This document shows positions 5,137 through 59,100 of a stretch of DNA of 64,000 bases, in pieces. The first letter of the stretch is position 1. Each line of letters begins with the position of its first letter. The notes under the pieces were generated by a model. It had not been told where the DNA came from. It did no database searches and saw only the letters and a program-made list of their open reading frames with translations. Made by a program: the position numbers and the translations under genes. Origin of the DNA: Verrucomicrobiota bacterium (GTDB lineage: Bacteria; Verrucomicrobiota; Verrucomicrobiia; Limisphaerales; UBA11358); NCBI GenBank assembly GCA_049517655.1, contig JBEKRQ010000002.1, positions 193,059 through 257,058 on the forward strand. The letters are read 5' to 3'.

Positions 5137-6360
5137 TCAGGGAAGTGAATTCAGAAAATGCAAAAGCAAATTTTTGCCGCGCTCCAATTCCTCCAGCGAA
5201 ATCCATTCGTCCGACGTGTGCGCCTGTGCGATGTCGCCGGGACCGAACACCACACTCGGAATTCCGGCGCGTGATAAAACCGCCGCGTCGCAAAAATAGT
5301 CCACGCCGACCGGCTTCAACTGGCCGACACTGTGAAGAAACCGGCGAACCAGCGGCAGCCCCGGATTCGTCTCCAGCGGCAAACACGGCTCGAGTTTCGT
5401 GCTGGAAATCTTCGCGCTCAATTTCTTTGCGCGCAGCCACGCGGAAATTTCCCGCCGCACGCCGCTTTCCATTTCGTCCGGCAGCGTGCGCCGATCAACG
5501 GTGATGGTACAATGGTCTGGCACGATATTCGGCTGCGTTCCACCGCGAATCGTGCCGACGTTAATCGTCGCGGTGCCAAGCAACGGATGACGGCGTTTTC
5601 GCAAGCGCGCGGCGTAATCCGTTTCGAGCGCGTCCACGATGCGCGCCATTTCGTGAACGGCATTTTTGCCGAGCTGCGGTGTTGCACCGTGTGCCGCCTT
5701 GCCATGCGTTTCAAGCTCCAGCCAAATGCTGCCTTTGTGAGCGGTGACGACCTGCAATCGCGTCGGCTCGCCGACAATCGCCAAATCCGCCTTGAATCCG
5801 CTGGCCGCCAGCGCGCGCGAACCGGCTTGTGCGTTCTCTTCGTCAATCAAACCGGCGAAGACGATTTCGGTTTCCTTCGGACGCGATTTCATCAATTCGC
5901 AAAGCGCGGAGAACATGGCAGCAACGGAACCTTTTGTGTCGCAGGCGCCGCGTCCGTGCAGACGACCGTTTTTGCGACGCGGAACAAATTGCGAATCGCC
6001 GGCGTTGACGGTGTCGAGATGCGGAGCGAGCAGGATGGTCTGGCGGATTTTGTTTCGCGGCAGCAGACGCACAATGAGATTGGAACGAGCCAAATCGGAT
6101 TCTCTTGTTTGGTGGGGCGAGTGTCCTCGCGAGCCGGTCTTGGACTGCGGTGACATGTCACCGCTTTCTAAAGCGCGGACACGTCCGCGCACTCCAAACA
6201 CTTTTTGAAATTCAACCTCAAGCCCAGTGCGTTTAGCAGCGCTGGCAAGAAAATCGGCGACGCGTTTTTCCCCAGCATGCGGATGGTGCGGCGGAAGAAA
6301 AGCTGGGTTTACGCTGGGCAGCGCAATGAGTTCAGCCAGGAGTTTTTCCGTGCGCGTCAT
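5137..6360 (-). CDS. M20-family metallopeptidase (ArgE/DapE-type deacylase) carrying an in-frame repeat insertion
   Basis: LLAELIALPSVNP..., LLAPHLDTV, GRGACDTKG, GLIDEE, and a C-terminal GPGDIAQAHTSDEWISLEEL motif typical of ArgE/DapE. I start at ATG 6360 (MTRTEKLL); the ORF-track start at 6429 is the GTG of a repeat element. Confidence 0.8.
   Translation of the reverse strand: MTRTEKLLAELIALPSVNPAFLPPHHPHAGEKRVADFLASAAKRTGLEVEFQKVFGVRGRVRALESGDMSPQSKTGSRGHSPHQTRESDLARSNLIVRLLPRNKIRQTILLAPHLDTVNAGDSQFVPRRKNGRLHGRGACDTKGSVAAMFSALCELMKSRPKETEIVFAGLIDEENAQAGSRALAASGFKADLAIVGEPTRLQVVTAHKGSIWLELETHGKAAHGATPQLGKNAVHEMARIVDALETDYAARLRKRRHPLLGTATINVGTIRGGTQPNIVPDHCTITVDRRTLPDEMESGVRREISAWLRAKKLSAKISSTKLEPCLPLETNPGLPLVRRFLHSVGQLKPVGVDYFCDAAVLSRAGIPSVVFGPGDIAQAHTSDEWISLEELERGKNLLLHFLNSLP
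6104..6192. repeat. cluster of three short palindromes embedded in-frame in the M20 gene
   Basis: GGGGCGAGTGTCCTCGCGAGCCG (22/23 match to 21978-22000), GCGGTGACATGTCACCGC (perfect 18-bp palindrome), and GCGCGGAC-AC-GTCCGCGC. Confidence 0.85.
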
Positions 6361-6369
6361 GGCTTCAGA

Positions 6370-6429
6370 GTGGCACAGGCTTCCAGCCTGTGAAAAGTAA
6401 TTACTCCACAGGCCAGAGGCCTGTGCCAC
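6370..6429. repeat. REPIN-like double hairpin, GTGGCAC family, copy 1
   Basis: GTGGCACAGGCTTCCAGCCTGTG-AAAAGTAATTACTC-CACAGGCCAGAGGCCTGTGCCAC: two hairpins in inverted orientation with inverted termini. Confidence 0.9.
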
Positions 6430-6465
6430 CTTTCCACTTTATTCTCGACATCAATCATTTTGGAG

Positions 6466-7299
6466 ATGAAAACCGAGCCTGACGATATGACTGGCAGTTG
6501 CAAGCTTTGCAATAAAGTTGAGATATTAAAGGAATCTCACGTTATTCCGGATTTTTACATCCACGGACTAGAACACAAATTACCCACCGGTTCAAAAGGA
6601 GAACTTCAACCATTTTCAATTGTGTTGAGCGCAGATCCTGAAATGGAAGGCGGAGCAATGCAACGTGGCTATTGGGAAAAAATTCTAGGGATTAAAGAAT
6701 ACTTACTTTGTGGTGCTTGTGAGCAAAAATTTCAAAGAAATGAAAGTTATGTTCGTGACTTGCTTTACGGAAACGCTCCGCCACCTCTTAAAAAATTGTC
6801 AATCGGCTCAAGTCTCAACCTTGGTATTGCACAACCTGATTTTGACGGTTTTCTTGGCGCAAAGAAAGTTATTGTCGACTACAAAAAATTAAAACTCTTT
6901 CAACTGTCACTTTTATGGCGTGCTGGAATTGCCAAAGGGTCGTTTTTCAAAAATGTAGATTTGGGCGAATTTCATAGCGCAAGATTGCGGGAGCTTTTAC
7001 ATGCGGAAAACCCGGGTTTGGACACAGACTATGCTTGTGTGATGATTGACCTCCAGCACAATGGAAATGGCTATGCAGATTGGATTGAAGCGCCAAAAAG
7101 GTCAAAGGATGGTCAGGTAAATTATCAATTTATCATTGGCGGTTACATGTATTTGTTTACTGTTTCAAAGCAAAAGTCGCGACCGTCAGCCCAATGTTGT
7201 TCAGTAAAATCATCCGGCGAAATAATTATTCTTGTCGTTGATGCGAAGAAGTTAATCCGTTCCAAGGCGGCGACGCTTCATCGGTTGGGGCGGCTGTAG
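6466..7299 (+). CDS. orphan hypothetical protein with two CxxC pairs (Zn-ribbon/HNH-like?)
   Basis: Visibly AT-richer ORF on the opposite strand to both neighbours. Motifs CKLCNKVEILKESHVIPDFY and LLCGACEQKFQRNESY. The ORF-track start 6460 is TTG; the first ATG is 6466. Confidence 0.6.
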   Translation: MKTEPDDMTGSCKLCNKVEILKESHVIPDFYIHGLEHKLPTGSKGELQPFSIVLSADPEMEGGAMQRGYWEKILGIKEYLLCGACEQKFQRNESYVRDLLYGNAPPPLKKLSIGSSLNLGIAQPDFDGFLGAKKVIVDYKKLKLFQLSLLWRAGIAKGSFFKNVDLGEFHSARLRELLHAENPGLDTDYACVMIDLQHNGNGYADWIEAPKRSKDGQVNYQFIIGGYMYLFTVSKQKSRPSAQCCSVKSSGEIIILVVDAKKLIRSKAATLHRLGRL

Positions 7300-10616: not shown

Positions 10617-13256
10617 CTATTGTTGCGAATCTTGTCCACCAAACAAATCCATCTGCGGCGGCGGGGTAAGCTGTTTGAGTTTGTCGCGGTCCTGCTGGCG
10701 GCGGGGGCTTTGTCGCACTGTGCCTTCCGGTGTCAGTTCGGATTCTTCGAGGTTGCTGAGAATCACCTTCGCACGTTCCAACACTTCCTTCGGCACACCG
10801 GCCAGACGTGCGACATGGATGCCGTAACTCTTGTCCGTGCCGCCCTCAACGATTTTGTGCAGGAACACCACCTGATCGCGCCACTCGCGCACGGCCACAT
10901 TGAAGTTCTTCAGCCTTGGCAGGCGCTGGGCGAGTTCGGTCAATTCGTGGTAATGCGTCGCGAACAGCGTTTTCGCACCGACTTGGTTGTGCAGGTGCTC
11001 GACGATGCTCCACGCGAGACTCAAACCGTCGAATGTGCTCGTGCCGCGCCCGATTTCGTCGAGCACAATAAGGCTGCGCGGCGTGGCGTTGTTGAGGATG
11101 TTTGCCGTCTCCGTCATTTCGACCATGAACGTTGACTGTCCGCGTGTAAGATCGTCGCTGGCACCAATGCGCGTGAAGATGCGGTCCACCAAATCAATCC
11201 GAGCCTCCGCCGCCGGCACGAACGAACCACTGTGCGCCAGCAAAACAATCAATGCGACCTGCCGGATGTAAGTGCTCTTGCCCGCCATGTTCGGCCCCGT
11301 GATGAGCGCGATTTGGGGGAAAATGGTGGGGACGCGCTGCTGCGCGTCCTGGCCGACCGGCAGGTCGGCCCTACCAACCGAACCTAGCCCCGCATCATTC
11401 GGCACAAACCGCTCGTCCATCAAACTTTGCTCCAGCACCGGATGGCGTCCGTCGTGAATCTGAATCACGCCTTCGTCAGCAACCTGCGGACGGCAATAGT
11501 TGTGCAGGCGCGCCGTCTCGGCGAACGACGCCAGTACATCGAGTTGTGCGAGTGCCGCGGCGGTTTGCTGAATTTTCGGCAATTGACCGAGCACTTCCTC
11601 ACGCACGCGCTGGAAGAGTTCGTATTCCAGTTTTACGCTGCGTTCCTCCGCGCCGAGGATTTTACCTTCCATCTCCTTCAACTCCGGCGTGATGTAACGC
11701 TCGCCGTTGGCGACGGTCTGCTTGCGGACGTAATGCGGCGGGACCTTGTCGAGGTTCGACTTCGTGACTTCGATGTAGTAGCCGAAGACGGAATTGAACC
11801 GGACTTTCAGCGAGGTGATGCCGGTGTGTTCGATCTCCTGTTGCTGGAGTTTCGCAATCCAATCCTTCCCGCCACGCGTGGCGTCACGGAGTTCATCGAG
11901 CGCGGCGTCGAAACTGTCACGAATCATGCCGCCTTCCTTCACCGCGAGCGGCGGGTCATCCACGATGGCGCGCGAAATCAAATCCACGAGGTCGGGCGAT
12001 TCGGTGAGCTGGGATTCAAGCTCGCCTAGGAGTGGAACAGGCCTCTGGCCTGTTTTGCCTTCTGAAATTTGCAATTTGTCAGAACACAGGCCGGAGGCCT
12101 GTGCCACACTTTGCAAAATCCCCTTCACCGCCGGAATTTGCTCCAAGGCCAGGCGCAGGACAACGAGGTCGCGCGCATTGCCGCTGCCGGAACTCAACCG
12201 GCCAATCGTGCGTTCCAAATCACGAACGTTTACAAGCTGCGCACGAAAATTATCCAAACCCGCAGAGTTCTCAACGAACGTCTGAACGGCGCCCTGCCGG
12301 CAGCGAATGGGCTCGACGGCGGCGAGCGGTTGCGAAAGCCAGTCGCGCAAGCGGCGCGCGCCCATCGGCGTGACAGTGCGATTGACCACGCCGTAAAGCG
12401 AAGCGTTGCGCGGCGCGTCGTGGCGCAACGGCTCGAGAATTTCGAGATGCCGGAGTGTCGTGTAATCGAGCGCGAGGAAATCGTTGCGGCGATAAAACGA
12501 CAGGCGGGTGAGGTGCTTCACGTCGCGGCGCAGGTGTTGCGTGAGATAATGCAGCGCGGCACCTGCCGCGCCAATGGCCGCCATCCTGTCCTTTAGCCCG
12601 AACCCGTCGAGCGACGCGACCTTGAAATGGTCGCGCACGGTGTAGAGTGCGGTTTCCGGTGCGAACGTCCAATCGTCGTAGCCATTCAAAATTTTAAACG
12701 CGCCGCGCAGCAAATCGCGCAGTGTACCCGCCTCGCCCGGATAAATAATTTCCGCCGGGCGCAAGCGTTCCAGTTCAGTGAGCAGCGCCGAATCATTTTC
12801 CAATTCCGTCGTCCTGAAATCGCCCGTGGTCAAATCCACCAGCGCGAGGCCGAAGGTTTTTCCCAGTGGGTAAATTGCGGCGAGGAAGTTGTTGCGTTCA
12901 GCCACAAGCATCCGTTCATCGAAATGCGTGCCGGGCGAGAGGATTTGGGTGACCTCGCGTTTGACGAGCTTGCCGGGTTGGGCGTCTTCAAGTTGATCGC
13001 AAATGGCGACTTTCCGTCCGGCCTTGAGCAGTCTGCCGATGTAGGCATGGGACGCATGGTGCGGCAGACCGCACATGGGCACGCCGTTGCGCGCGGTGAG
13101 GGCGAGGTTGAGCAGTTGCGCGCCTGTCTGCGCGTCTTCGAAAAACATCTCGTAGAAATCGCCGAGCCGAAACAGCAACAGCGCATCCTTGGGCAATTCG
13201 CCTTTGATGCGGCGATACTGCGTCATCATGGGAGTGAGTTGGGCTTCGGCGGCCAT
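10617..13256 (-). CDS. mutS: DNA mismatch repair protein MutS
   Basis: N-terminal TPMMTQYRRIK...FYEMFFEDA, Walker A ITGPNMAGKST, DEIGRGTSTFDG, FATHYHEL. The ORF-track start 13262 is TTG; the first ATG is 13256. Contains an in-frame repeat at 12032-12107. Confidence 0.95.
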   Translation of the reverse strand: MAAEAQLTPMMTQYRRIKGELPKDALLLFRLGDFYEMFFEDAQTGAQLLNLALTARNGVPMCGLPHHASHAYIGRLLKAGRKVAICDQLEDAQPGKLVKREVTQILSPGTHFDERMLVAERNNFLAAIYPLGKTFGLALVDLTTGDFRTTELENDSALLTELERLRPAEIIYPGEAGTLRDLLRGAFKILNGYDDWTFAPETALYTVRDHFKVASLDGFGLKDRMAAIGAAGAALHYLTQHLRRDVKHLTRLSFYRRNDFLALDYTTLRHLEILEPLRHDAPRNASLYGVVNRTVTPMGARRLRDWLSQPLAAVEPIRCRQGAVQTFVENSAGLDNFRAQLVNVRDLERTIGRLSSGSGNARDLVVLRLALEQIPAVKGILQSVAQASGLCSDKLQISEGKTGQRPVPLLGELESQLTESPDLVDLISRAIVDDPPLAVKEGGMIRDSFDAALDELRDATRGGKDWIAKLQQQEIEHTGITSLKVRFNSVFGYYIEVTKSNLDKVPPHYVRKQTVANGERYITPELKEMEGKILGAEERSVKLEYELFQRVREEVLGQLPKIQQTAAALAQLDVLASFAETARLHNYCRPQVADEGVIQIHDGRHPVLEQSLMDERFVPNDAGLGSVGRADLPVGQDAQQRVPTIFPQIALITGPNMAGKSTYIRQVALIVLLAHSGSFVPAAEARIDLVDRIFTRIGASDDLTRGQSTFMVEMTETANILNNATPRSLIVLDEIGRGTSTFDGLSLAWSIVEHLHNQVGAKTLFATHYHELTELAQRLPRLKNFNVAVREWRDQVVFLHKIVEGGTDKSYGIHVARLAGVPKEVLERAKVILSNLEESELTPEGTVRQSPRRQQDRDKLKQLTPPPQMDLFGGQDSQQ
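12032..12107. repeat. REPIN-like double hairpin, GTGGCAC family, copy 2 (inside mutS)
   Basis: Minus strand: GTGGCACAGGCCTCCGGCCTGTG-(30 nt)-AACAGGCCAGAGGCCTGTTCCAC. Confidence 0.9.
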
Positions 13257-17349: not shown

Positions 17350-17795
17350 TGAATGAAGAAATGGAACAGTTTGAACAACGCTTGAGTCGTCAGCCGCTAA
17401 AGGGAATTCCAGCGGAATGGCGCGGGGAGATTTTGTCGGCGGCTTGGGAGGGACGGCGTGTCGCCGTCCCTGAAATTGGGGACGCCAACATGGCGTCCCT
17501 CCCAAAATTACGCGATTGGCTTTTAGCCATCCTGTGGCCTCATCCGCGGGCGTGGGCCGGCCTGGCAGTGGTTTGGATTTTGATTTTAACGGTGGATTTT
17601 TCGGTGCGCGACACATCGCAAACTGTCGCCGGGAAATCTTCGCCACCATCGCCGCAAGTCATCACGGAACTGCGGCAGCAGCAACGGCTGCTGGCCGAAC
17701 TGATTGGTTCGCGCGAAACGCACGATGCCGATCGGACCAAACCGTTCGTGCCGCAGCCGCGCAGCGAGCAGCGTTTTGAAATTTTGACAACGTAG
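17346..17795 (+). CDS. putative anti-sigma factor (single-pass membrane protein)
   Basis: ATGA start/stop overlap with the sigma gene. One hydrophobic helix (WAGLAVVWILILTV). Assigned by position only. Contains an in-frame repeat at 17445-17504. Confidence 0.45.
   Translation: MMNEEMEQFEQRLSRQPLKGIPAEWRGEILSAAWEGRRVAVPEIGDANMASLPKLRDWLLAILWPHPRAWAGLAVVWILILTVDFSVRDTSQTVAGKSSPPSPQVITELRQQQRLLAELIGSRETHDADRTKPFVPQPRSEQRFEILTT
17445..17504. repeat. GGGAGGGACG-family double hairpin, copy 1 (inside the anti-sigma-like ORF)
   Basis: TGGGAGGGACGGCGTGTCGCCGTCCC-TGAAATTG-GGGACGCCAACATGGCGTCCCTCCCA. Confidence 0.9.
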
Positions 17796-17797
17796 GC

Positions 17798-17865
17798 CGG
17801 GAGGGACGGCGTGTCGCCGTCCCAAAAACCCGAAACCATGGATGCTGATATGGCATCCATTCCAA
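17798..17865. repeat. GGGAGGGACG-family double hairpin, copy 2 (degenerate second arm)
   Basis: CGGGAGGGACGGCGTGTCGCCGTCCC-AAAAACCCGAAACC-ATGGATGCTGATATGGCATCCATTCCA. The second arm differs from copy 1 mainly by transitions. Confidence 0.8.
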
Positions 17866-25110: not shown

Positions 25111-28100
25111 ATGTCGCACGCGGATTTTGTTCATCTTCATCTGCACACCGAGTATTCGTTGCTCGATGGCGCCTGCCGTGTGGACAAGCTCGTCGAGAAG
25201 GCGCATGAACTGAAATTCCCCGCGCTTGCCATCACCGACCACGGCGTGCTTTACGGCGCGATTGACTTTTACAAGGCTGCGAGAGAGAAGGGCATCAAAC
25301 CCATCATCGGTTGCGAGGCGTATGTCGCGCCGGGCAGCCGGTTGGAAAAGAAAGCCGCCGGCGGGGGGCGCGATGTTTATCACCATCTGCTGCTGCTGGC
25401 CAGGGACGCGACCGGCTACAAAAACCTCATCAAGCTCACCACGGAGGCGCATCTCACCGGCTATTATTACAAGCCGCGCATAGACAAGGAACTGCTCGCC
25501 GCGCACAAGGACGGGTTGATTGTGCTATCGGGCTGCCTTGCCAGTGAAATTCCCGAATGGATTCAAAAGGACCAGCCGGACAAGGCGCGCGCGGCCATTG
25601 ACTGGTTCAAGCAAACGCTCGGCGCAGACAATTTTTATCTCGAACTGCAAAATCACGGCATCGCGGAACAGGCGAAGGTGAACCGCCACCTGATTCAATG
25701 GGCAAAGGAATTCGGCTTGAAGCTCGTCGCGACGAACGATGTGCATTACATCGAGAAGAGCCATTCGCACGCGCACGACTGCCTGATTTGCATCGGCACG
25801 CAGATGCAGCTCGCCGACACGAAACGAATGCGCTACGAGCCGGAGCAATTTTATCTGCGCTCGGCGGAGGAAATGAAGGCGCGCTTCGCTGACACGCCGG
25901 ACGCGATCAAAAACACGCTCGAAGTCGCCGAGAAATGCAACGTCGAGATCCAGTTCGGCAAGCTGCATTATCCCGTCTTCACCCCGCCGGAACATTTCAC
26001 GCGCGAGGGTTATTTGCGCAAGCTGGTCGCGGAAGGATTATTCCGCCGCTATACGATTCACGCCAAAGCCGAGGGGAAGGAATTCCTCATCGAGGGAATT
26101 GATGATCCGAAGCGATTGCCAACATTTGATGTGGGACAGGCTTCCAGCCTGTCTCAAACTTCAAATGGAACTGCTCCCAAGAAAGAAGGCGACAGGCAGG
26201 ATGCCTGTCCCACCTTGGATGATCCCACCGTCGCCGCAGCCATCAAAGCCGTGTTGGATCGGTTGAAACTTGAACTCGCGGTTATTGAAAAGACCGGTTT
26301 CATCAGTTACTTTCTCGTCGTCGGCGATTTCATCCGCTACGGGCACGAACACGGCATTGCTTGCGTGGCGCGCGGTTCCGCCGCCGGTTCGATTGTCACT
26401 TACCTGCTGGAAATTTCAAACGTGGACCCGATCCGCTACGGCCTGCTGTTCGAGCGCTTTCTCAATCCCGAACGCATCAGCCCGCCGGACATTGACATTG
26501 ATTTTGCCGACGACCGCCGCGCCGATGTCATCGAGTATGTCCGCGAGAAATACGGACGCGATTCCGTCGCGCAAATCATCACCTTCGGCACGATGGGTGC
26601 GAAGTCCGTCGTGCGCGACGTTGGCCGTGTGATGGGTTTGAGCTACGGCGACTGCGACCGGCTCGCCAGGATGATTCCGTTCGATTTGAAGATGACGCTT
26701 GAAAAGGCGCTCAAGCAGTCACCGGAATTCAAGGAGGCTTACGAAGCCGAGGAAGCCACGCGCGAGTTGGTTGACACCGCGCTTATTCTCGAAGACATCA
26801 CGCGCAACGCCTCCGTCCACGCTGCCGGCGTCGTCATCGGCGACCAGCCGCTGGTGAATCTGCTGCCGCTCAAGCAGGACGAAAGCGGCACGCTTGTCAC
26901 GCAATACGCGATGAATCCCGTCGGCGACCTTGGCCTGTTGAAGATGGATTTTCTCGGGCTGAAGACGCTGACCGTCATCCGCAACGCGTGTGAAATGGTC
27001 AAGCGCACGCACGGCATTGAAGTGCCGATCGATAATCTGCCGCTCGACGACGCAAAGACCTACGACCTGCTCAATCGCGCGGAAACGCTCGGCGTGTTCC
27101 AATTGGAATCCGGCGGGATGCGGGATTTGTGCCGCAAATTTCAAATCAGTTCCATCGAGCACATCACGGCGCTGGTCGCGCTTTATCGTCCGGGGCCGAT
27201 GGAATTGATTCCCGAATTCATCCGCCGCCGGCACGGTGAGGTAAAGATCGAGTATGAACATCCGTTGCTCGAACCGATTACGCGCGAGACGTACGGGATT
27301 TTGATTTATCAGGAGCAGGTGATGCAGGCCGCGCAGGTGCTCGCGGGTTACACGCTCGGCGGCGCGGATTTGCTCCGGCGCGCGATGGGCAAAAAGAAGC
27401 GGGAGGAAATGGCCAAGCAACGCGCCATTTTCGTCAAGGGCTGCAAGGAGAAAAATCATATCCCCGAAAAAAAGGCGAATGAGATTTTTGACTTGCTCGA
27501 AAAATTCGCAGGCTACGGCTTCAATAAATCACATGCCGTCGCCTACGCCATCGTTGCGTATCAAACCGCTTATCTGAAGGCGAATTATCCGGTGGAATTC
27601 CTGTGCGCCATGATGACGAATGACATGGCAGACACTGCGAAACTCGCGCAGTTCATCAACGAAGCGCGTGAGTTCGACATCGAGGTTTTGCAGCCGGATG
27701 TCAACGAAAGCCAGGTTTATTTCGCGCCGGCACGGGATGGCAAGGCCATTCGCTTCGGTCTCGCCGCCATCAAAGGCGTGGGCGAAGTCGCGGTGGAAAC
27801 CATTTTGAAGGCGCGGAACGAAGGCGGAAAATTTAAATCGCTCTCCGATTTGTGCGAGCGGGTGGACAGCCGTACGGTGAACCGGAAAATTTTGGATGCG
27901 CTCATCAAATCCGGCGCGTGCGATGGTTTCGGCCAGACGCGTGCCACGCTTTGCGCCCAAATCGAACGCACTTTGGGCCGCGCCGCGAGCATCACCTCCG
28001 ATCGCCAGCGCGGGCAAAGCTCCCTTTTCGGCGTGCTCGAAGAAAAAGCGCCGCAGATGCCCGAGTCCATCAGCAATTTGCCCGAATGGCCGCAACACGA

Positions 28101-28800
28101 ATTGCTGGCGCATGAAAAGGAACTGCTCGGTTTCTACGTCACCGGCCACCCACTCACGCCTTACGCGCCATTGCTGGAAAAATACGCGCTGACGAACACG
28201 GCGAAACTCGCGGAATTGCCGAATCGCAGCCTGACACGCATCGGCGGATTGATCGCGGTGGTTCAAAACGGTGTGGCGAAGAAAAGCGGCAAACCGTATT
28301 CGATTATCACACTCGAAGACCTCGAAGGCTCGGTCCAAGTGCTCTGCATGAATGAAAACTATGACAAATACCGTGAGTTGTTGAAGCCGAACAAGGCCAT
28401 TTTTGTCATTGGCGAAGCGAATACCAGCGATGAACGCCCGAAAATTTTCCCGCAGGAAATTCTGCCACTGGAGGATGCGCCAAAAAGATTCACCAAACAG
28501 GTTCATTTGCGTCTGCACACGGCGCATTTGCAACCGGAACAACTGGATTCCGTGCGCGAGCTTGTTGCGGCGCATCCCGGCAAATGTCCGCTGCTTCTCT
28601 GCTTCATGCGTCCGGGTGGTGAAGTGATTTTTATGGATACGAACGAACGTTTTAGCGTCACGCCGTCGTTGAAATTGCAGCAGGAAGCCGACGCGCATTT
28701 TGGCGAGGAGACTTACTACGCGAAAGTGGATACGAGTTCGCCTGAACGCACACCGCGCCGTTGGGAACGTAAAAATGGATACAACGGCGGCGGGGAATGA
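25111..28800 (+). CDS. dnaE: DNA polymerase III alpha subunit
   Basis: PHP domain FVHLHLHTEYSLLDGA, palm/fingers (YFLVVGDFI..., PDIDIDF, GLLKMDFLGLKTLT, YQEQVMQ, GYGFNKSHA) and an OB fold at the C-terminus. Contains an in-frame repeat at 26131-26213. Confidence 0.97.
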   Translation: MSHADFVHLHLHTEYSLLDGACRVDKLVEKAHELKFPALAITDHGVLYGAIDFYKAAREKGIKPIIGCEAYVAPGSRLEKKAAGGGRDVYHHLLLLARDATGYKNLIKLTTEAHLTGYYYKPRIDKELLAAHKDGLIVLSGCLASEIPEWIQKDQPDKARAAIDWFKQTLGADNFYLELQNHGIAEQAKVNRHLIQWAKEFGLKLVATNDVHYIEKSHSHAHDCLICIGTQMQLADTKRMRYEPEQFYLRSAEEMKARFADTPDAIKNTLEVAEKCNVEIQFGKLHYPVFTPPEHFTREGYLRKLVAEGLFRRYTIHAKAEGKEFLIEGIDDPKRLPTFDVGQASSLSQTSNGTAPKKEGDRQDACPTLDDPTVAAAIKAVLDRLKLELAVIEKTGFISYFLVVGDFIRYGHEHGIACVARGSAAGSIVTYLLEISNVDPIRYGLLFERFLNPERISPPDIDIDFADDRRADVIEYVREKYGRDSVAQIITFGTMGAKSVVRDVGRVMGLSYGDCDRLARMIPFDLKMTLEKALKQSPEFKEAYEAEEATRELVDTALILEDITRNASVHAAGVVIGDQPLVNLLPLKQDESGTLVTQYAMNPVGDLGLLKMDFLGLKTLTVIRNACEMVKRTHGIEVPIDNLPLDDAKTYDLLNRAETLGVFQLESGGMRDLCRKFQISSIEHITALVALYRPGPMELIPEFIRRRHGEVKIEYEHPLLEPITRETYGILIYQEQVMQAAQVLAGYTLGGADLLRRAMGKKKREEMAKQRAIFVKGCKEKNHIPEKKANEIFDLLEKFAGYGFNKSHAVAYAIVAYQTAYLKANYPVEFLCAMMTNDMADTAKLAQFINEAREFDIEVLQPDVNESQVYFAPARDGKAIRFGLAAIKGVGEVAVETILKARNEGGKFKSLSDLCERVDSRTVNRKILDALIKSGACDGFGQTRATLCAQIERTLGRAASITSDRQRGQSSLFGVLEEKAPQMPESISNLPEWPQHELLAHEKELLGFYVTGHPLTPYAPLLEKYALTNTAKLAELPNRSLTRIGGLIAVVQNGVAKKSGKPYSIITLEDLEGSVQVLCMNENYDKYRELLKPNKAIFVIGEANTSDERPKIFPQEILPLEDAPKRFTKQVHLRLHTAHLQPEQLDSVRELVAAHPGKCPLLLCFMRPGGEVIFMDTNERFSVTPSLKLQQEADAHFGEETYYAKVDTSSPERTPRRWERKNGYNGGGE
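26131..26213. repeat. REPIN-like double hairpin, GTGGCAC family, copy 3 (inside dnaE)
   Basis: GTGGGACAGGCTTCCAGCCTGTC-(37 nt)-GACAGGCAGGATGCCTGTCCCAC. Confidence 0.9.
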
Positions 28801-29044: not shown

Positions 29045-30526
29045 CTATTGCGGGGACCAGATGCGGAATTCGCCGCTGCAATGTAGCAGGGCCATCATAT
29101 ACAGCAAACCATTGTAGTAACGCCCGGCTCCATCCGGAATCGGCGTGTTCCACAGGGCCTCCACAAATTGTTTTGAACGCGGATTTGTTGCCGCGAGGCT
29201 GGCCACCGCGTTCATCGCCACCAACCCCTGCGCATGCAAGCTGTCAAGCTGGTGGCCATCGAGCGTGAATTGGCATCCATAGTGAGCCATCCCTTTGGAT
29301 TCGAAAAAAGCCTGCAACCGGTCACTCAATTCCCTTTCCCGGACATCCTTGCCCCACCATGACCAATCCACCGACCAATTCCCCGCAGTGCGAAACGCGT
29401 CGTATCTGAAATTGACTGCCCCTTTGTCCCAAACGTTAGTGGTCGGTATCGTCGGTGTTCCGTCAAAATTCGCATAGTCCGGAGCCAAACCTGTGACCGG
29501 ATGAGTTGCGCGCGGAAAAAAGTCCCGGCTGGCTGCAGCAGCCTCCATCCAGAAATCCCGGTCCGCCACCGGCCCCCATCGCGCCCACAATTCATAAAAC
29601 GCAGGCAGATGATACGAGGGATCGGTAAAAGGCGGACGTTCCAAGCTCGGCGAGAAGACGACCATTTTGTGTTTCGCATTAAAGAGCGGCCCGATGGTCA
29701 CGGTTGAATTCGTATTCCTCCGTGCGTTGGAAATGGTGCCCGTGATCGGCGCGCGATGCCTTTTGTGTTCCGTATTAAAGAGCGGCCCGGCGGTCACGGT
29801 TGAATTCGTATTCCTCCGTGCGTCGAAAATGGTGCCCGTGATCGGCGCGCGATGCCTCATGTTGGTCAGCAACCGGTCGGCTTCGGCCTTGTAATTGTAA
29901 ATTCCACTGCCGCTGCCCCACCGGTTCGCAGCAAAGTAAAGTGCTGTGACATAATATTCCTCGCCATCCGGCGCCACATATTCGCTCATGCACACGCCGT
30001 TTGGCCGCGCCTCCCAGGAAAAAAATCCGAAGGACGGATGCGCCGGGTTATCGTGATACAGGTATGTTTTTGACCAGTTCCAGATCGCGTCGAACTCGGC
30101 CTTCTTGTTCAACTGCACCGCAATCATCATGCCGTAGGACATGCCTTCTGTGCGCACGTCGTTATTGGCGATATCAGTGACATAGGCAAGCGGACCGTTT
30201 GCGTTCGCTCCTGCAGGGTAATAAACCGTCTGCGTGGCTGGATTCCCGTGGAATAACTGCTCGAAGGCGCCATTGATTTTCGCGGTCACCTGCTGCGGCG
30301 AGTGGCCGGTCTCGACAAAAAGGTCCCGGTAATAGCCGGTGGCGAAAGCGCCTGAACCGTTGACATCGCTTCCGGCAAGGCTGTCCCTGCCGAATGCCGG
30401 GGTGTGCGGAAAAACTCTTGCCCCTTCCTGGTTCGGCGTGTCTTGTTGCTGTCCGGCTAAAGAAACGCAGCCAACAAGCACGAGAAAGAGCGGGACGACG
30501 GTTTTCACGGCGAGTGTTTGCTTCAT
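29045..30526 (-). CDS. glycoside hydrolase family 8, Rex-like (reducing-end xylose-releasing exo-oligoxylanase type), lipoprotein
   Basis: DVRTEGMSYGMMIAVQ, APDGEEYYVTALYFAANRWG, DPSYHLPAFYELW and the C-terminal YYNGLLYMMALLHCSGEFRIW closely follow my memory of Bacillus halodurans Rex8A. Start set at MKQTLAVKTVVPLFLVLVGC (lipobox). Contains a 2 x 32 aa tandem duplication. Confidence 0.82.
   Translation of the reverse strand: MKQTLAVKTVVPLFLVLVGCVSLAGQQQDTPNQEGARVFPHTPAFGRDSLAGSDVNGSGAFATGYYRDLFVETGHSPQQVTAKINGAFEQLFHGNPATQTVYYPAGANANGPLAYVTDIANNDVRTEGMSYGMMIAVQLNKKAEFDAIWNWSKTYLYHDNPAHPSFGFFSWEARPNGVCMSEYVAPDGEEYYVTALYFAANRWGSGSGIYNYKAEADRLLTNMRHRAPITGTIFDARRNTNSTVTAGPLFNTEHKRHRAPITGTISNARRNTNSTVTIGPLFNAKHKMVVFSPSLERPPFTDPSYHLPAFYELWARWGPVADRDFWMEAAAASRDFFPRATHPVTGLAPDYANFDGTPTIPTTNVWDKGAVNFRYDAFRTAGNWSVDWSWWGKDVRERELSDRLQAFFESKGMAHYGCQFTLDGHQLDSLHAQGLVAMNAVASLAATNPRSKQFVEALWNTPIPDGAGRYYNGLLYMMALLHCSGEFRIWSPQ
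29663..29854. repeat. 2 x 96 bp in-frame tandem duplication inside the GH8 gene
   Basis: 29663-29758 and 29759-29854 are near-identical. They encode HRAPITGTISNARRNTNSTVTIGPLFNAKHKM and HRAPITGTIFDARRNTNSTVTAGPLFNTEHKR. Confidence 0.95.
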
Positions 30527-32199: not shown

Positions 32200-32334
32200 G
32201 GGAGCGCGCCCGCCCCCGGGCGCTGTTTTCCGCGCCCCCGCGGAAAATTTGTCCGTTTTAATTCAATCAGCGGTTACTGTCCGAATTGCTGGACGCGAGG
32301 CGCGTCCAGCCACGCCAGAGGCGGGCGTGCTCCC
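32200..32334. repeat. GC-rich multi-hairpin palindromic element with terminal inverted repeats
   Basis: Termini GGGAGCGCGCCCGCC ... GGCGGGCGTGCTCCC are inverted with 1 mismatch. Internal hairpins: GCGCCCG/CGGGCGC, TTTTCCGCG/CGCGGAAAA, CTGGACGCG/CGCGTCCAG. Confidence 0.85.
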
Positions 32335-32369
32335 AATCTATTTTCTGCCTTTTTGCGGCTATTCTCCCC

Positions 32370-32445
32370 GAAATTGGACTTTGTTTTTTCGGCAAAAGTC
32401 ATTAAATGACAAAGTGAGTTCGGCTGAATAATGCTGTTCGGCAGA
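32370..32445 (+). promoter_or_regulatory. copy 1 of a duplicated ~75-bp 5' module (promoter-like plus palindromic operator GTCATTAAATGAC)
   Basis: About 85% identical by eye to 33048-33121. Contains the palindrome GTCATT-A-AATGAC (32398-32410) overlapping ATGACA (-35-like), with AATAAT (-10-like) about 17 nt downstream. Ends at the AAGGAG RBS of the DUF3795 gene. Confidence 0.5.
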
Positions 32446-32452
32446 AGGAGAC

Positions 32453-32788
32453 ATGATGATTGGCTACTGTGGACTGGACTGTGAGCAATGCGAGGCCTTC
32501 ATTGCCACACAGAACAACGACGACGCCCTCCGCATCAAAGTCGCTGGGGAATGGGCAAGATTATACAATGCCCCCATCAAACCCGAACACATCAACTGCA
32601 CAGGATGTCAATCGGCGGGCGTGAAGACATACTACTGCGATCAGCTGTGCGAGATCAGGAAATGCGCGACAAAGAAATCCGTTGGCACATGCGCGGACTG
32701 TTCTGATTACCCCTGTTCGGTGCTGAACGAAATGTTCCGGGCGGCTCCACAAGCAAAAACAAGGCTTGATGCGCTGAGGAAGAAATAG
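32453..32788 (+). CDS. DUF3795-family Cys-rich protein
   Basis: MMIGYCGLDCEQCEAFIA...INCTGCQS...YYCDQLCEIRKCATKKSVGTCADCSDYPC is the DUF3795 cysteine pattern as I remember it. AAGGAG lies 3 nt upstream of the ATG. Confidence 0.7.
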   Translation: MMIGYCGLDCEQCEAFIATQNNDDALRIKVAGEWARLYNAPIKPEHINCTGCQSAGVKTYYCDQLCEIRKCATKKSVGTCADCSDYPCSVLNEMFRAAPQAKTRLDALRKK

Positions 32789-32864
32789 AATGCCGAACAA
32801 GGCGTTCTGCCGAACTCCGACATGCGCCGCGAGCGGGCATACCGCTGACATATTTTCTTACGTT

Positions 32865-32940
32865 GGTAGGGACGCGCGGCCCGCGCGTCCGGCGGAAGTT
32901 CCGCCTCCCAACCCGGTCGCCTCGGCGAGGTGACTCTACC
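32865..32940. repeat. GC-rich multi-hairpin element with GGTAG...CTACC termini
   Basis: GGTAGGGACGCGCGG-C-CCGCGCGTCC, GGCGGAA-G-TTCCGCC, GTCGCC..GGCGAG, ending in TCTACC. Confidence 0.8.
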
Positions 32941-32980
32941 TTTGTTTTTGTAGCGGCGCTCTATGAGCGCCGGTGAAATC

Positions 32981-33039
32981 GGTAGGGCGGCGCTACTGCG
33001 CCGCCGGGGATGATGGCCGCGCAGCAGCGCGGTCCTACC
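32981..33039. repeat. REPIN-like double hairpin with GGTAGG/CCTACC termini
   Basis: GGTAGG-GCGGCGC-TACT-GCGCCGC-CGGGGATGAT-GGCCGCGC-AGCA-GCGCGGTC-CTACC. Confidence 0.85.
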
Positions 33040-35695: not shown

Positions 35696-35707
35696 AAATT
35701 TATTTAT

Positions 35708-35787
35708 TGGGAGGGACGCCGTGTCGGCGTCCCTTATATTTGGGACGGCAACCCGGGCTACGCCGAGGCGAGCATGCCGTCCCTCCC
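35708..35787. repeat. GGGAGGGACG-family double hairpin (copy 3) in the etfB-etfA-like spacer
   Basis: TGGGAGGGACGCCGTGTCGGCGTCCC ... GGGACGGCA...TGCCGTCCCTCCC. The termini are inverted repeats. It occupies most of the 97-bp spacer. Confidence 0.85.
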
Positions 35788-53403: not shown

Positions 53404-53508
53404 GTAGCACCCGCGTCTCGCGGGTTGTTTCGGGCGTCACGCCCGAAACTGAATCAGTGGAGTAATTCGGCGGGACGCCAAATTAAACCCGCCAGAGGCG
53501 GGTGCTAC
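53404..53508. repeat. REPIN-like element with GTAGCAC...GTGCTAC termini
   Basis: GTAGCACCCGCG-TCT-CGCGGGT, TTTCGGGCG-TCA-CGCCCGAAA, spacer, CCCGCC-AGA-GGCGGG-TGCTAC. The outer 11 nt are inverted. Confidence 0.85.
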
Positions 53509-56105: not shown

Positions 56106-59100
56106 ATGTCGTTTAAGTTTGTTGCCAGACGATTATTCGGTGAACGCTTTGTTGCCATCGCGTGCGCGTTGGTCTTGCTCCCGTTAGCGGCACACGCCCA
56201 AAATTCCGGCAGACAGTTTTTGCAGGGTCATGTGCAGCCGGCAGTGGCGCGTTTGCATTTACAGCCATTGGGCAGGCTTTCAGCCACACAACGGCTGAAT
56301 CTGGCGATAGGTCTGCCCTTGAGAAATCAACAGGCGCTCGACAATCTGCTCCAGCAAATCTACGACCCGGCAAGTTCCAATTACCGTCATTACCTGACGC
56401 CGGAACAGTTCACAGAGCAGTTTGGTCCGACTGAGGAGGATTATCAGGCGGTTATCACATTCATGGAATCGAAGGGTCTGACAGTAACCTACCGACATCC
56501 GAACCGGGTGGTGCTGGACGTGAGCGGGTCGGTGGCGGACATAGAGAAGGTGTTTCATGTAAGGATGCAGGTCTACCAGCATCCGACGGAAGCACGGACA
56601 TTTTACACGCCGGACGTTGAACCTTCACTGGACTTGACCGTTCCAATTTTGCACATCAGCGGATTGGACAACTTTGCCCTGCCGCGTCCTTTGCATGTTG
56701 TTAGACCAATTCCCGACCATCAGGCGACGAGCGTGACACCGAATTCCGGTTCCGGGCCGGGCGGCGCTTATATGGGGAATGATTTTCGGGCGGCTTACGC
56801 TCCGGGAGTTACGTTGAATGGTTCTGGGCAAATCGTGGGACTGTTGGAGTTTGACGGTTATTACGCAAATGACATCACAACTTACGAAAACGCAGCCGGG
56901 CTGCCTGCCGTCACAGTGGCAAATGTATTATTGGATGGGTTCAATGGATCCGCGGGCAGCAATAACGTGGAGGTAGCTTTGGACATTGAGATGGCCATCT
57001 CAATGGCACCTGGATTGTCCAAAGTGATTGTGTATGAAGCCGGGCCGACTGGCAATCCGAATGACATTTTGAACCGCATGGTAACAGACAATCAGGCCAA
57101 GCAACTTAGTTCCTCTTGGGGATGGTTGCCTTTCGACCCAACCACTGACAAGATCTTTCAAGAGTTTGCCGCTCAGGGACAGTCGTTCTTTCAAGCTTCC
57201 GGCGACTGGGATGCTTTTATAGGGGCGCCTTGGTCGCCGATGGATAACCCGTATATCACGCTTGTGGGCGGGACAACTTTGACAATGACCGGCGCAGTAA
57301 CCACCGCACGCTATTGTCACACGGCGACATTGCTGCCCAATGGGAAGGTGTTGGTTGCAGGAGGCACACACACGGGGTCGGATGCTATTTCTGACGCGGA
57401 ACTGTACGATCCAGCCACCGGGATATGGACGAATACCGGTGTGTTGAACACCTCACGCGGTTATCACACGGCGACATTGCTGCCCAATGGGCAGGTGTTG
57501 GTCGCGGGTGGCTACAACGGCGGTTCTCTTTCCAGCGCGGAGCTATACGATCCGTCCACCGGGAAGTGGACAGCGACCGGCTCGATGACCAGCGGACACG
57601 CTGGTCACACGGCGACGTTGCTCCCCAATGGGAAGGTGCTGGTCGCAGGGGACTTCTATAGCGGGACGAGCGCAGAGCTATACAATCCGGCCACCGGGAC
57701 ATGGACGGCGACCGGCTCGCTGAACACCGGACGCTATGACTATGATCAAACGGCACCGTTGCTGCCCAATGGGAAGGTGCTGGTCGCGGGGGGCGTTGGC
57801 GGCGGTAACAGTGCGGAGTTATACGATCCAGCCACCGGGACGTGGACGCTGACCGGTGCAATGAACACCGCACGCTTTAGTCACACAACGATCTTGCTGC
57901 CCAATGGGAAGGTGCTGGTCGCGGGGGGCTGGAATAGTGGCCCTCTTTCCAGTGTGGAACTATACGATCCGGCTACCGGCACCTGGACAACGGCTAACGC
58001 AATGAACACCGCATGCTATGGCCGTACAGCTACGTCGCTGCCAAATGGGCAGGTGCTGGTCGCGGGTGGTTGTAACTATCAGTCTGTTTCCAGCGCGGAG
58101 TTGTATAATCCAACCACCGGAACATGGACAACGACCGCCGCGATGGCCACCCCACGTTATTTTCACACAGCGACGCCGCTGACCAATGGGCAGGTGTTGG
58201 TTGTGGGTGGTTTTGACGGAAGTTACGGAGGTTTTAGTGGCCGTTCTCTTTCCAGCGCGGAGCTATACGATCCATCCACCGAGAAGTGGACAGCGACCAG
58301 TGCGCTGAACGGTGCCAGTGGTTCTTGGGTATCGGAAACCACTTGGAATTGGGGCGGTGGAACTGGCACCGGCGGTGGGATCAGCACCAATTATTCAATC
58401 CCTAGCTGGCAACAAGACATCAACATGACGGCCAACCACGGTTCGACCACCATGCGGAACGTTCCGGACGTGGCTCTGACCGCTGATAACGTTTATGTCA
58501 TCTACAACAACGGCTTCGGCGGAGTCTTCGGCGGCACCAGTTGCGCAACGCCCCTGTGGGCGGCTTTTACCGCGCTGGTCAATCAACAAGCCGTGGCGGC
58601 TGGCAAGCCAACGGTTGGTTTTATCAATCCGGCGGTCTATGCCATTGGCAAAAGCACGAACTATACTGCGGATTTTCACGATATCACCACCGGCAACAAT
58701 ACAAGTCCCAGCAGCCCCCAAAATTTCTATGCCGTTCCTAGTTACGACCTCTGCACCGGATGGGGCACGCCCGCTGGGCAAAATTTAATTAACGATTTGG
58801 CCGAGTTGTGCGATTGGCTGATCATCACGCCGACAACAGGCTTCACTTCCATCGGTGGGATTGGTGGACCGTTCACTATCACTTCGCAAAGCTTGTCGTT
58901 GACTAACGCGGGAACAAATTTACTGACTTGGACTCTGGTCAACACATCCCTTTGGCTCAATGCCTCGTCCAGCGGCGGCACACTGACGCCTGGTGGACCG
59001 GCAACCACCGTGACCGTGAGTCTAAACTCGGCAGCCAGTAATCTGCTGGTGGGGACATACAACGCAACGGTGTGGTTCACCAATCTAAACAACGGTATCG

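Follow-up and report, generated by a model that had tools for sequence, protein, structure and literature searches.

The dnaE gene and its palindromic insert

The window analysed here is a stretch of 64,000 nucleotides (nt) of contig JBEKRQ010000002.1 (positions 193,059 to 257,058 of the forward strand) from an uncultured Limisphaerales member of the Verrucomicrobiota, and the element of interest is a short palindromic repeat that is translated within the gene of the replicative DNA polymerase. This gene, dnaE (25111-28800, plus strand), encodes a DNA polymerase III alpha subunit of 1229 amino acids (aa) with the Pfam domains PHP and DNA_pol3_alpha; it is the replicative dnaE and not dnaE2, and its product is 100% identical to a protein from a Joint Genome Institute (JGI) contig (P0001), the nearest named relatives being metagenome-assembled genomes (MAGs) of Verrucomicrobiota/Limisphaerales. 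The element at positions 26131-26213 consists of GTGGGACAGGCTTCCAGCCTGTC, then 37 nt, then GACAGGCAGGATGCCTGTCCCAC. Its first triplet, GTG, lies 1020 nt into dnaE (26131 minus 25111) and is therefore in codon phase 0, and the element is translated in frame as residues 341-368, VGQASSLSQTSNGTAPKKEGDRQDACPT. The element is 83 nt long, which is not divisible by three, and the translated insert is 84 nt long. The initial annotation of this DNA, made from the sequence alone, had described exactly this sequence, its location in dnaE, the phase-0 GTG and the peptide, and had placed a repeated element family in frame in the interval that separates the PHP domain from the conserved palm block; coordinates and translation bear out all of these points. 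It is likely that the element is a doublet of repetitive extragenic palindromic (REP) sequences, of the class associated with REP-associated tyrosine transposases (RAYTs), and that DnaE carries its translation as a passenger loop within a permissive linker.

Anatomy and classification of the element

The element is a pair of GT[AG]G-headed REP units arranged as a tail-to-tail, REPIN-like dimer (no strand is assigned to such a doublet as a whole, nor to its spacer). The left unit (26131-26153, plus strand) has a GTGG head, an 8-bp stem (GACAGGCT/AGCCTGTC) and a TCC loop; the spacer (26154-26190) is 37 nt long, and its 5' end, TCTCAAACTTC, is also present in orthologous dnaE copies; the right unit (26191-26213, minus strand) reads GTGGGACAGGCATCCTGCCTGTC on the minus strand. 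The window contains three copies of the doublet (6370-6429, 12032-12107 and 26131-26213), and all six of their REP units, which in dnaE are 23 nt long, have a GTGG head followed by one variable base, an 8-bp stem and a 3-nt loop. The GC-rich stem of the family is ACAGGCN/N'GCCTGT and its loop is TCY; the hairpin is GTGGGACAGGC..GCCTGTC. Each arm, when read from its own GTGG head, shows the same nTCYn loop, which makes the arms true inverted repeats; those of the dnaE doublet are complementary at 21 of 23 positions, and the doublet without its spacer is its own reverse complement. The full doublet pattern is matched three times in the window and not once in 100 shuffles, and the 11-mer head is matched seven times against 0.81 expected. 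The dnaE element has a minimum free energy of -46.7 kcal/mol (z = -5.65), and all three window copies fold better than shuffled controls (z from -5.7 to -8.0).

GT[AG]G-headed REPs are recognized by a 5' GT[AG]G tetranucleotide that leads directly into an imperfect, GC-rich palindrome of 20-40 nt, which the element possesses, with orthologous copies showing GTAG heads; by dispersal as a multicopy family, which is evident from three doublets in 64 kb and from matches to the doublet pattern at 120 or more loci in other genomes (Verrucomicrobiota, Planctomycetota, Lentisphaerota, Kiritimatiellota, 'delta' groups, Cyanobacteria and Chloroflexi); and by extragenic location, from which the family departs in that two of the three window copies are translated. 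The translated copies are compatible with REP membership because a minority of the REPs of this class are documented within genes. Two inverted REPs separated by a short spacer and folding into one hairpin are the hallmark of a REPIN, and the element has them, but the conservation of the whole unit including the spacer that is typical of REPINs is absent from the three window copies, of which the spacers are 14, 30 and 37 nt long and have no mutual similarity.

Several other identities can be dismissed. The arms are inverted rather than direct and number just two, which rules out a CRISPR array; the insert has 28 aa and no intein motifs, which rules out an intein; no T-run is present as in an intrinsic terminator; and the same insert occurs in many independent assemblies, which rules out an assembly artefact. 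No target-site duplication is found around the three window copies (flanks TTTGAT|..|CTTGGA, TTCAGA|..|CTTTCC and CCTAGGA|..|ACTTTG), as would be expected of a miniature inverted-repeat transposable element (MITE).

The DnaE linker among orthologues

The product of dnaE was compared with 120 orthologues that are 85-100% identical to it and with 80 metagenome orthologues that are 62-88% identical, about 50 of which can be anchored on flanking motifs. Among the 120 orthologues, the residues flanked by ..DDPxRLPT[YF] and ..DPxVAxAIKxVxDRLK.. form a hypervariable segment. The linker of one orthologue (P0112, on L121) is 9 aa long (APAHPNEHD), to be compared with D plus 28 aa plus LDDPTVAA (9 + 28 aa) in the window, and from this comparison the insert is exactly 28 codons, corresponding to the 83-nt element plus one base. 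In the anchored metagenome orthologues the linker varies from 0 aa (L169) to 58 aa (L202), being short or empty in L134, L136 and L169. The alpha subunit of Escherichia coli aligns at 242-305 and 323-471, and residues 306-322, which match the variable linker, are unaligned. An AlphaFold2 model of DnaE residues 1-620 built with 55 orthologues has a mean predicted local distance difference test score (pLDDT) of 48 and a predicted template modelling score (pTM) of 0.39, with residues 209-367 below a pLDDT of 50, and is too poor for judging the exposure of the loop, because the homologues are all at least 85% identical and the alignment is shallow.

Many DnaE orthologues carry the same family in the same place (VGQAS[SR]LSQTS...GDRQDACPT). 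The seven orthologous dnaE copies for which DNA is available share the spacer start TCTCAAACTTC and differ by indels of 3n nt, and this combination of a common spacer start with codon-sized indels points to one old insertion that was vertically inherited. Other DnaE orthologues have different GT[AG]G palindromes at the same site (GTGGCACGGGC.., GTGGCTGCGGACG.., GTAGGAGACGACG.., GTAGCGCAGGC.. and GTAGGGACGCC..). Comparison with DnaE orthologues had been proposed as a check; with a linker of 0-58 aa that is empty in several orthologues and occupied by unrelated palindrome families in others, no peptide is conserved.

Copies of the element in mutS and upstream of a peptidase gene

The second translated copy lies in mutS (10617-13256, minus strand; 879 aa, identical to P0121), which is host to two REP doublets. 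The doublet of the same family (12032-12107, 76 nt) is read in frame on the minus strand as VAQASGLCSDKLQISEGKTGQRPVPL; counted downward to position 12107 it is in phase 0 (13262 minus 12107 is 1155), and MutS of E. coli aligns on both sides of it with a gap at the element. The common phase of the dnaE and mutS copies had been noted correctly in the initial annotation, which did not mention that mutS is on the minus strand. The second doublet (11326-11374) belongs to other families (GTAGGGCCGACC.., GTGGGGACGCGC..), is composed of the units GTAGGGCCGACCTGCCGGTCGGCC and GGACGCGCAGCAGCGCGTCCCCAC, and is read in phase 1 as GRADLPVGQDAQQRVPT, directly before the Walker A motif.

The third copy of the family (6370-6429, 60 nt) lies between the divergent genes 5137-6360 (minus strand) and 6460-7299 (plus strand). 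It had been counted as a further in-frame case in phase 0, and this count does not hold: the mechanical open reading frame (ORF) over it begins at the element's own GTG (6429), three codons past a stop, and the 407-aa product that starts from the ATG at 6360 is called on 71 contigs, versus two contigs for the 430-aa form. The copy is most likely extragenic, upstream of the peptidase gene, with the true start of that gene at the ATG at 6360, and it is not an independent case.

Reading phase and orientation

The agreement in phase among the three copies had led to the proposal that a single insertion phase and orientation is tolerated, or that the peptide V-[AG]-Q-A-S-[GS]-L is selected, which on the evidence below is very improbable. 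The proposal accounts for the phase 0 shared by the two genic copies of the window, an agreement that has a chance probability of 1/3. A census of phases was made from at least 126 doublets found by a pattern scan of species-representative genomes and kept if they lay in long open frames with coding-like GC content at the three codon positions (GC1/GC2/GC3), of which 30 were then checked against Pfam. The tally of phases 0, 1 and 2 in Pfam-checked genes, including dnaE and mutS of the window, is roughly 12 : 8 : 0-2. Phase 0 (V[AG]QASxL) is verified in ten cases outside the window, or 12 with the window's two: a class-III aminotransferase, Pyr_redox_2, a PurM-like protein, a DUF1156 protein (two copies), RF3, KsgA, GlnE, FabD, SDR and DUF2064. 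Phase 1 ([SG]GTG[IVF]xPV) is represented by eight cases: HisA/F, PanC, RecQ, an amine oxidase, UvrD, UbiD, a SurA-like peptidyl-prolyl isomerase and a ceramidase-like protein. For phase 2 (WxRxxAC) there are two doubtful cases (L091, L113), in which the insert is outside the matched domain.

Tolerance of one phase is contradicted by these eight Pfam-verified phase-1 genes, by the second site of MutS, which is in phase 1 in the window, and by a sister family that has been published in all three phases. MutS orthologues 85-90% identical to that of the window have CGTGFQPV...REACAT in phase 1 at the second site, directly before Walker A, as a reading of either the window family or the sister family, the stems of which cannot be separated by this peptide alone. 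In MutS of P0194 the second site is empty, and across orthologues it is a hot spot with many different palindrome families. As for orientation, it cannot be defined for a self-reverse-complementary doublet, because the arms are true inverted repeats and the doublet is symmetric; the same symmetry is the reason that plus-strand dnaE and minus-strand mutS both yield V-x-Q-A-S-x-L. The proposal is also contradicted by the 3' arm, whose reading phase differs between the two genes (DRQDACPT in DnaE, TGQRPVPL in MutS). Selection of the peptide is contradicted by the DnaE linker, which in many orthologues is short, unrelated or missing.

The check for phase bias against the doublets of other genomes yields a divided answer: phase 2 is rare, as the proposal would have it, but phases 0 and 1 are both common. 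The sample is small and suggests a weak deficit of phase 2, for which a plausible cause is that in that phase the canonical GTAG head would bring TAG into frame, TGG being one transition away from TAG; GTAG heads are present in orthologous copies and in 7 of 39 other headed units.

A regularity of phase is also seen from site to site. At the linker position of DnaE (site 1; L122-L206), five or six palindrome families are found and all of their heads are in phase 0, as the single-phase proposal would predict; a strict automated head detector finds the head at seven loci, and the phases of the remainder were read by eye. In MutS (P0121-P0240) the site-1 peptides all begin with V-[AG] in phase 0, and at site 2 phase 1 predominates. 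Phases 0 and 1 have about equal shares in the general census. The shared phase at each site, on the small numbers at hand, suggests either turnover in place or a phase-fixed target. In four MutS orthologues (P0133, P0135, P0138 and P0140), site 1 is enlarged by a second doublet, such that two window-family doublets stand in tandem (VAQASGLC..HRSETCAT..VAQxSGLCSDKLQISE.KTGQRPVPL).

Association with Y1 transposases

REPs of this class are small non-autonomous repeats that are processed and spread by Y1 (HUH) tyrosine transposases, the RAYTs, acting on single-stranded hairpin DNA. A tblastn search finds no RAYT/Y1 transposase gene in the 64-kb window, and among the 120 census loci there is a single weak, non-adjacent match to RAYT (L111). 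In a MAG of Planctomycetota (L208), a Y1_Tnp gene has on either side GTAGCACAGGC[TTCCA/ATCTT]GCCTGTG, which is the window REP with a GTAG head, and at another locus (L209) a RayT homologue 62% identical to the query RayT is flanked by GTGGGACAGGCGTCCCGCCTGTC; JGI annotates homologues of this transposase as 'REP element-mobilizing transposase RayT'. Because the Y1 genes at these two loci are flanked by the same REP, the family belongs to the RAYT-associated class, and we infer, from what is established for that class, that the window element was mobilised by a RAYT. The peptide GTGFQPV is encoded by both ACAGGC and ACGGGC stems, so phase-1 peptides cannot assign a REP to its family; the stem families are separable solely by DNA, as at L208 and L209, or by phase-0 peptides (Q/L versus R/P). 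A RayT-flanking peptide at L207 was considered as a member of the window family and rejected, as its stem proved to be ACGGGC.

Two DnaE orthologues, P0084 (L122, 5617-6392) and P0067, contain what is predicted to be a complete Y1 transposase (Pfam Y1_Tnp; motif YVIMPNHVHVLV) with REP doublets on its flanks. This insert lies at a second variable site of DnaE, between VYFAPA and IRFGLAAIKGVGE, and is in frame and stop-free over its whole length, giving predicted DnaE proteins of 1483-1489 aa. The same arrangement of RAYT and REPs is present at L209 (1501-2546), where the surrounding dnaE is called in pieces. In the window, this second variable site of DnaE is empty ('VYFAPARDGKAIRFGL'). Nine RayT homologues (P0247, P0257, P0269, P0275, P0304, P0342, P0347, P0354 and P0356) have extra Pfam domains or names of host proteins, among them D-Tyr-tRNA deacylase, EcoEI_R_C/HsdR, AdoMet decarboxylase and SMC/AAA, and in-frame read-through between RAYT genes and host genes may thus also occur at further loci. 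The RAYT genes within dnaE, the RayT homologues with extra host domains and the shared phases at each site are more unusual than the element of the window; they lie outside the window or involve small numbers.

A probable passenger loop in a permissive linker

The history that would best explain the dnaE element begins with one REP doublet that inserted, or originated, in a surface linker of variable length in the polymerase III alpha subunit, in the interval between PHP domain and palm. The polymerase would have tolerated it because the insert adds exactly 28 codons, is free of stops in the frame that is read, and encodes a small, polar and probably unstructured loop. Vertical inheritance would have followed in a group of related Limisphaerales, during which the spacer gained or lost whole codons, the arms drifted and some lineages lost the pairing. 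The V-x-Q-A-S-x-L common to both proteins would be a by-product of the same DNA being translated in the same phase and not a selected peptide, and the filter on phase would be weak, as both phase 0 and phase 1 are in use and phase 2 is rare. The anatomy, the in-frame reading, the orthologues with empty or filled sites, the association with RAYTs in related genomes and the use of phases 0 and 1 in real genes are direct observations; insertion by a RAYT, the neutrality of the loop and the cause of the phase-2 deficit are inferences.

Several points weigh against it. The association of REP with RAYT is seen solely in other genomes, because the window has no RAYT. The spacers of the three window copies are dissimilar, unlike classical REPINs in which the whole unit is conserved. 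No signature of the insertion target is definable from the alignment with the empty-site orthologue on L121, because the linker of the latter is too diverged. The surface exposure of the linker is presumed from its variation in length. In addition, two signals hint at constraint on the nucleotides and not at pure neutrality: three base pairs are compensated on both sides among the seven orthologous dnaE copies, and identity at third codon positions is 0.845 in the left arm, compared to 0.59-0.62 in the flanking dnaE codons.

The last two points also speak for an alternative in which the hairpin itself is selected in dnaE, whether as an RNA structure (causing a pause of translation between domains or affecting mRNA stability) or as a DNA site bound by a RAYT or another protein. 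This alternative is unlikely, yet the data fit it in more than one respect. A model of two hairpins plus a closing stem has 92% of its cells paired among the seven orthologous copies, with a covariation score that is matched by 8 of 500 shuffles; GTGG/CCAC in the window is replaced by GTAG/CTAC in L128 and L193, and L205 is intermediate between these states; and the fold z-score of the dnaE element is the -5.65 given above. Selection on the hairpin is harder to reconcile with the decay of pairing in L203, L204 and L206, which have the heads GCAG, GGGG and GTCG, the fold energy in L203 being down to -27 kcal/mol; with the lack of covariation under a long-hairpin model; with the right arm, which has no excess conservation (0.649); and with the existence of empty-site orthologues. 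An Rfam scan of 25800-26500 yields no match, its two chance scores to microRNA hairpins being 21 and 17 bits against gathering thresholds of 85 and 65. Seven related sequences are too few for the pattern to be decisive, and conversion from other REP copies in the genome would mimic it; the evidence on selection of the hairpin is equivocal.

It could also be supposed that the inserts in dnaE and mutS tune the fidelity of replication or repair, as in a mutator. Within 64 kb there are one REP doublet in dnaE and two in mutS, most of the relatives listed carry inserts at both sites of MutS and both sites of DnaE, and Di Nocera et al. (PMC3733652) have speculated on such a role for replication and repair genes that carry REPs. 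This supposition is nevertheless highly unlikely: in the census, unrelated housekeeping genes carry the element as well (HisA/F, PanC, RF3, KsgA, FabD, GlnE, PurM-like, UbiD and aminotransferases), which implies no specificity for replication or repair, and long multi-domain proteins simply offer more permissive linkers.

A passenger loop of RAYT-class origin remains the preferred account of the dnaE element. A more far-reaching and improbable possibility is that the variable loops of DnaE and MutS are long-lived intragenic landing pads, in which REP families would swap in place with position and phase kept, accompanied by the predicted RAYT-DnaE fusions. If such fusions are made and active, the replicase would bring a single-strand-DNA transposase to the replication fork and couple REP mobilisation to lagging-strand synthesis; and if the re-use of loops in a fixed phase by many REP families and the in-frame RAYT genes in dnaE are both true, they would bear on the target choice of REPs and RAYTs, on their persistence and on coupling to the fork. 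As it stands, the window adds to the documented cases in which translated mobile palindromes are tolerated, here by a replicase and a mismatch-repair protein, and annotation should treat such segments as REP-derived and not as conserved protein features.

Further repeats in the window

The window contains other repeats besides the family described above. Within the M20 peptidase gene (5137-6360, minus strand), three short perfect palindromes that lack a GT[AG]G head are translated in frame at 6090-6190 (..GVRGRVRALESGDMSPQSKTGSRGHSPH..); they are GCGCGGACGTGTCCGCGC, GCGGTGACATGTCACCGC and a third of the GGCTCGCGAG type, and they look like another kind of intragenic palindrome. GT[AG]G-headed REP units of other families form a cluster of five at 32289-33038 and a doublet (GTAGCACCCGCGTCTCGCGGGT ... 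inverse) at 53404-53508, between two minus-strand genes. Three copies of a palindromic family without the GT[AG]G head, TTGGGAGGGACGGCGTGTCGCCGTCCC...GGGACGCC..GGCGTCCCTCCCAA, are at 17444-17505, 17797-17842 and 35707-35755. Tandem repeats comprise about seven coding units of 141 nt with 60-90% identity at 57276-58308, in an ORF of 1581 aa (56106-60851), and a 96-nt tandem duplication with 94% identity at 29665-29856.

Comparison with known systems

Bacterial MITEs such as Correia/NEMIS and Nezha resemble the element in being short and non-autonomous, in having terminal inverted repeats and in sometimes being intragenic; they differ in that each arm of the window element is itself a GT[AG]G-headed hairpin and that the related transposase is a Y1 HUH enzyme and not a DDE enzyme. 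Rickettsia palindromic elements (RPEs; Ogata et al. 2000) are likewise palindromes in frame within functional genes, including dnaE of R. conorii, where they contribute extra surface peptides, and they are the classical analogue in function. Their sequences are unrelated (CGTC-type RPE-4/6 with other peptides, and the longer RPE-1), and their hosts are obligate intracellular alphaproteobacteria. Membership in an RPE family is ruled out by the GTGG head and the unrelated stem of the window element, and the likeness is one of behaviour. We know of no RAYT for the RPEs of Rickettsia.

The REPIN-RAYT system (Bertels & Rainey 2011, PMC3116915; Nunvar et al. 2010) shares with the window family the pairing of two inverted REPs into one long hairpin and a RAYT gene flanked by the REP, as at L208 and L209. 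Classical REPINs are extragenic, have a conserved spacer and have been studied mainly in Proteobacteria, whereas the spacers in the window are unrelated and two of the three copies are translated.

The closest match is to the intragenic GTAG-type REPs described by Di Nocera, De Gregorio & Rocco (2013, BMC Genomics 14:522; PMC3733652), most of which are in the verrucomicrobium Opitutus terrae: about 70 are intragenic in that genome, many of them in replication and repair genes, and tail-to-tail REP dimers typically have variable spacers (PMC3733652). The likeness extends to the GT[AG]G head, the GC-rich stem-loop, the tail-to-tail dimers with variable spacers, the 20-30 residues encoded in frame, the verrucomicrobial host and the presence in replication and repair genes. 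The sister family of O. terrae, GTAG-19, appears in all three phases in the published table, with the peptides GTGVPPV, VARASRP, TGGTPVP and HGRDARAT (PMC3733652). These peptides are translations of GTGGCACGGGC..GCCCGTG, which is one compensated pair away from the window stem (ACGGGC/GCCCGT in GTAG-19, ACAGGC/GCCTGT in the window) and is present in some DnaE orthologues. The window differs further in that its host is an uncultured Limisphaerales MAG rather than O. terrae, and neither 'polymerase III' for O. terrae nor 'MutS' appears in the text or table of PMC3733652. The insertion of REPs within genes is thus already described, and the stem variant, the lineage and the use of dnaE and mutS as hosts are new in detail only.

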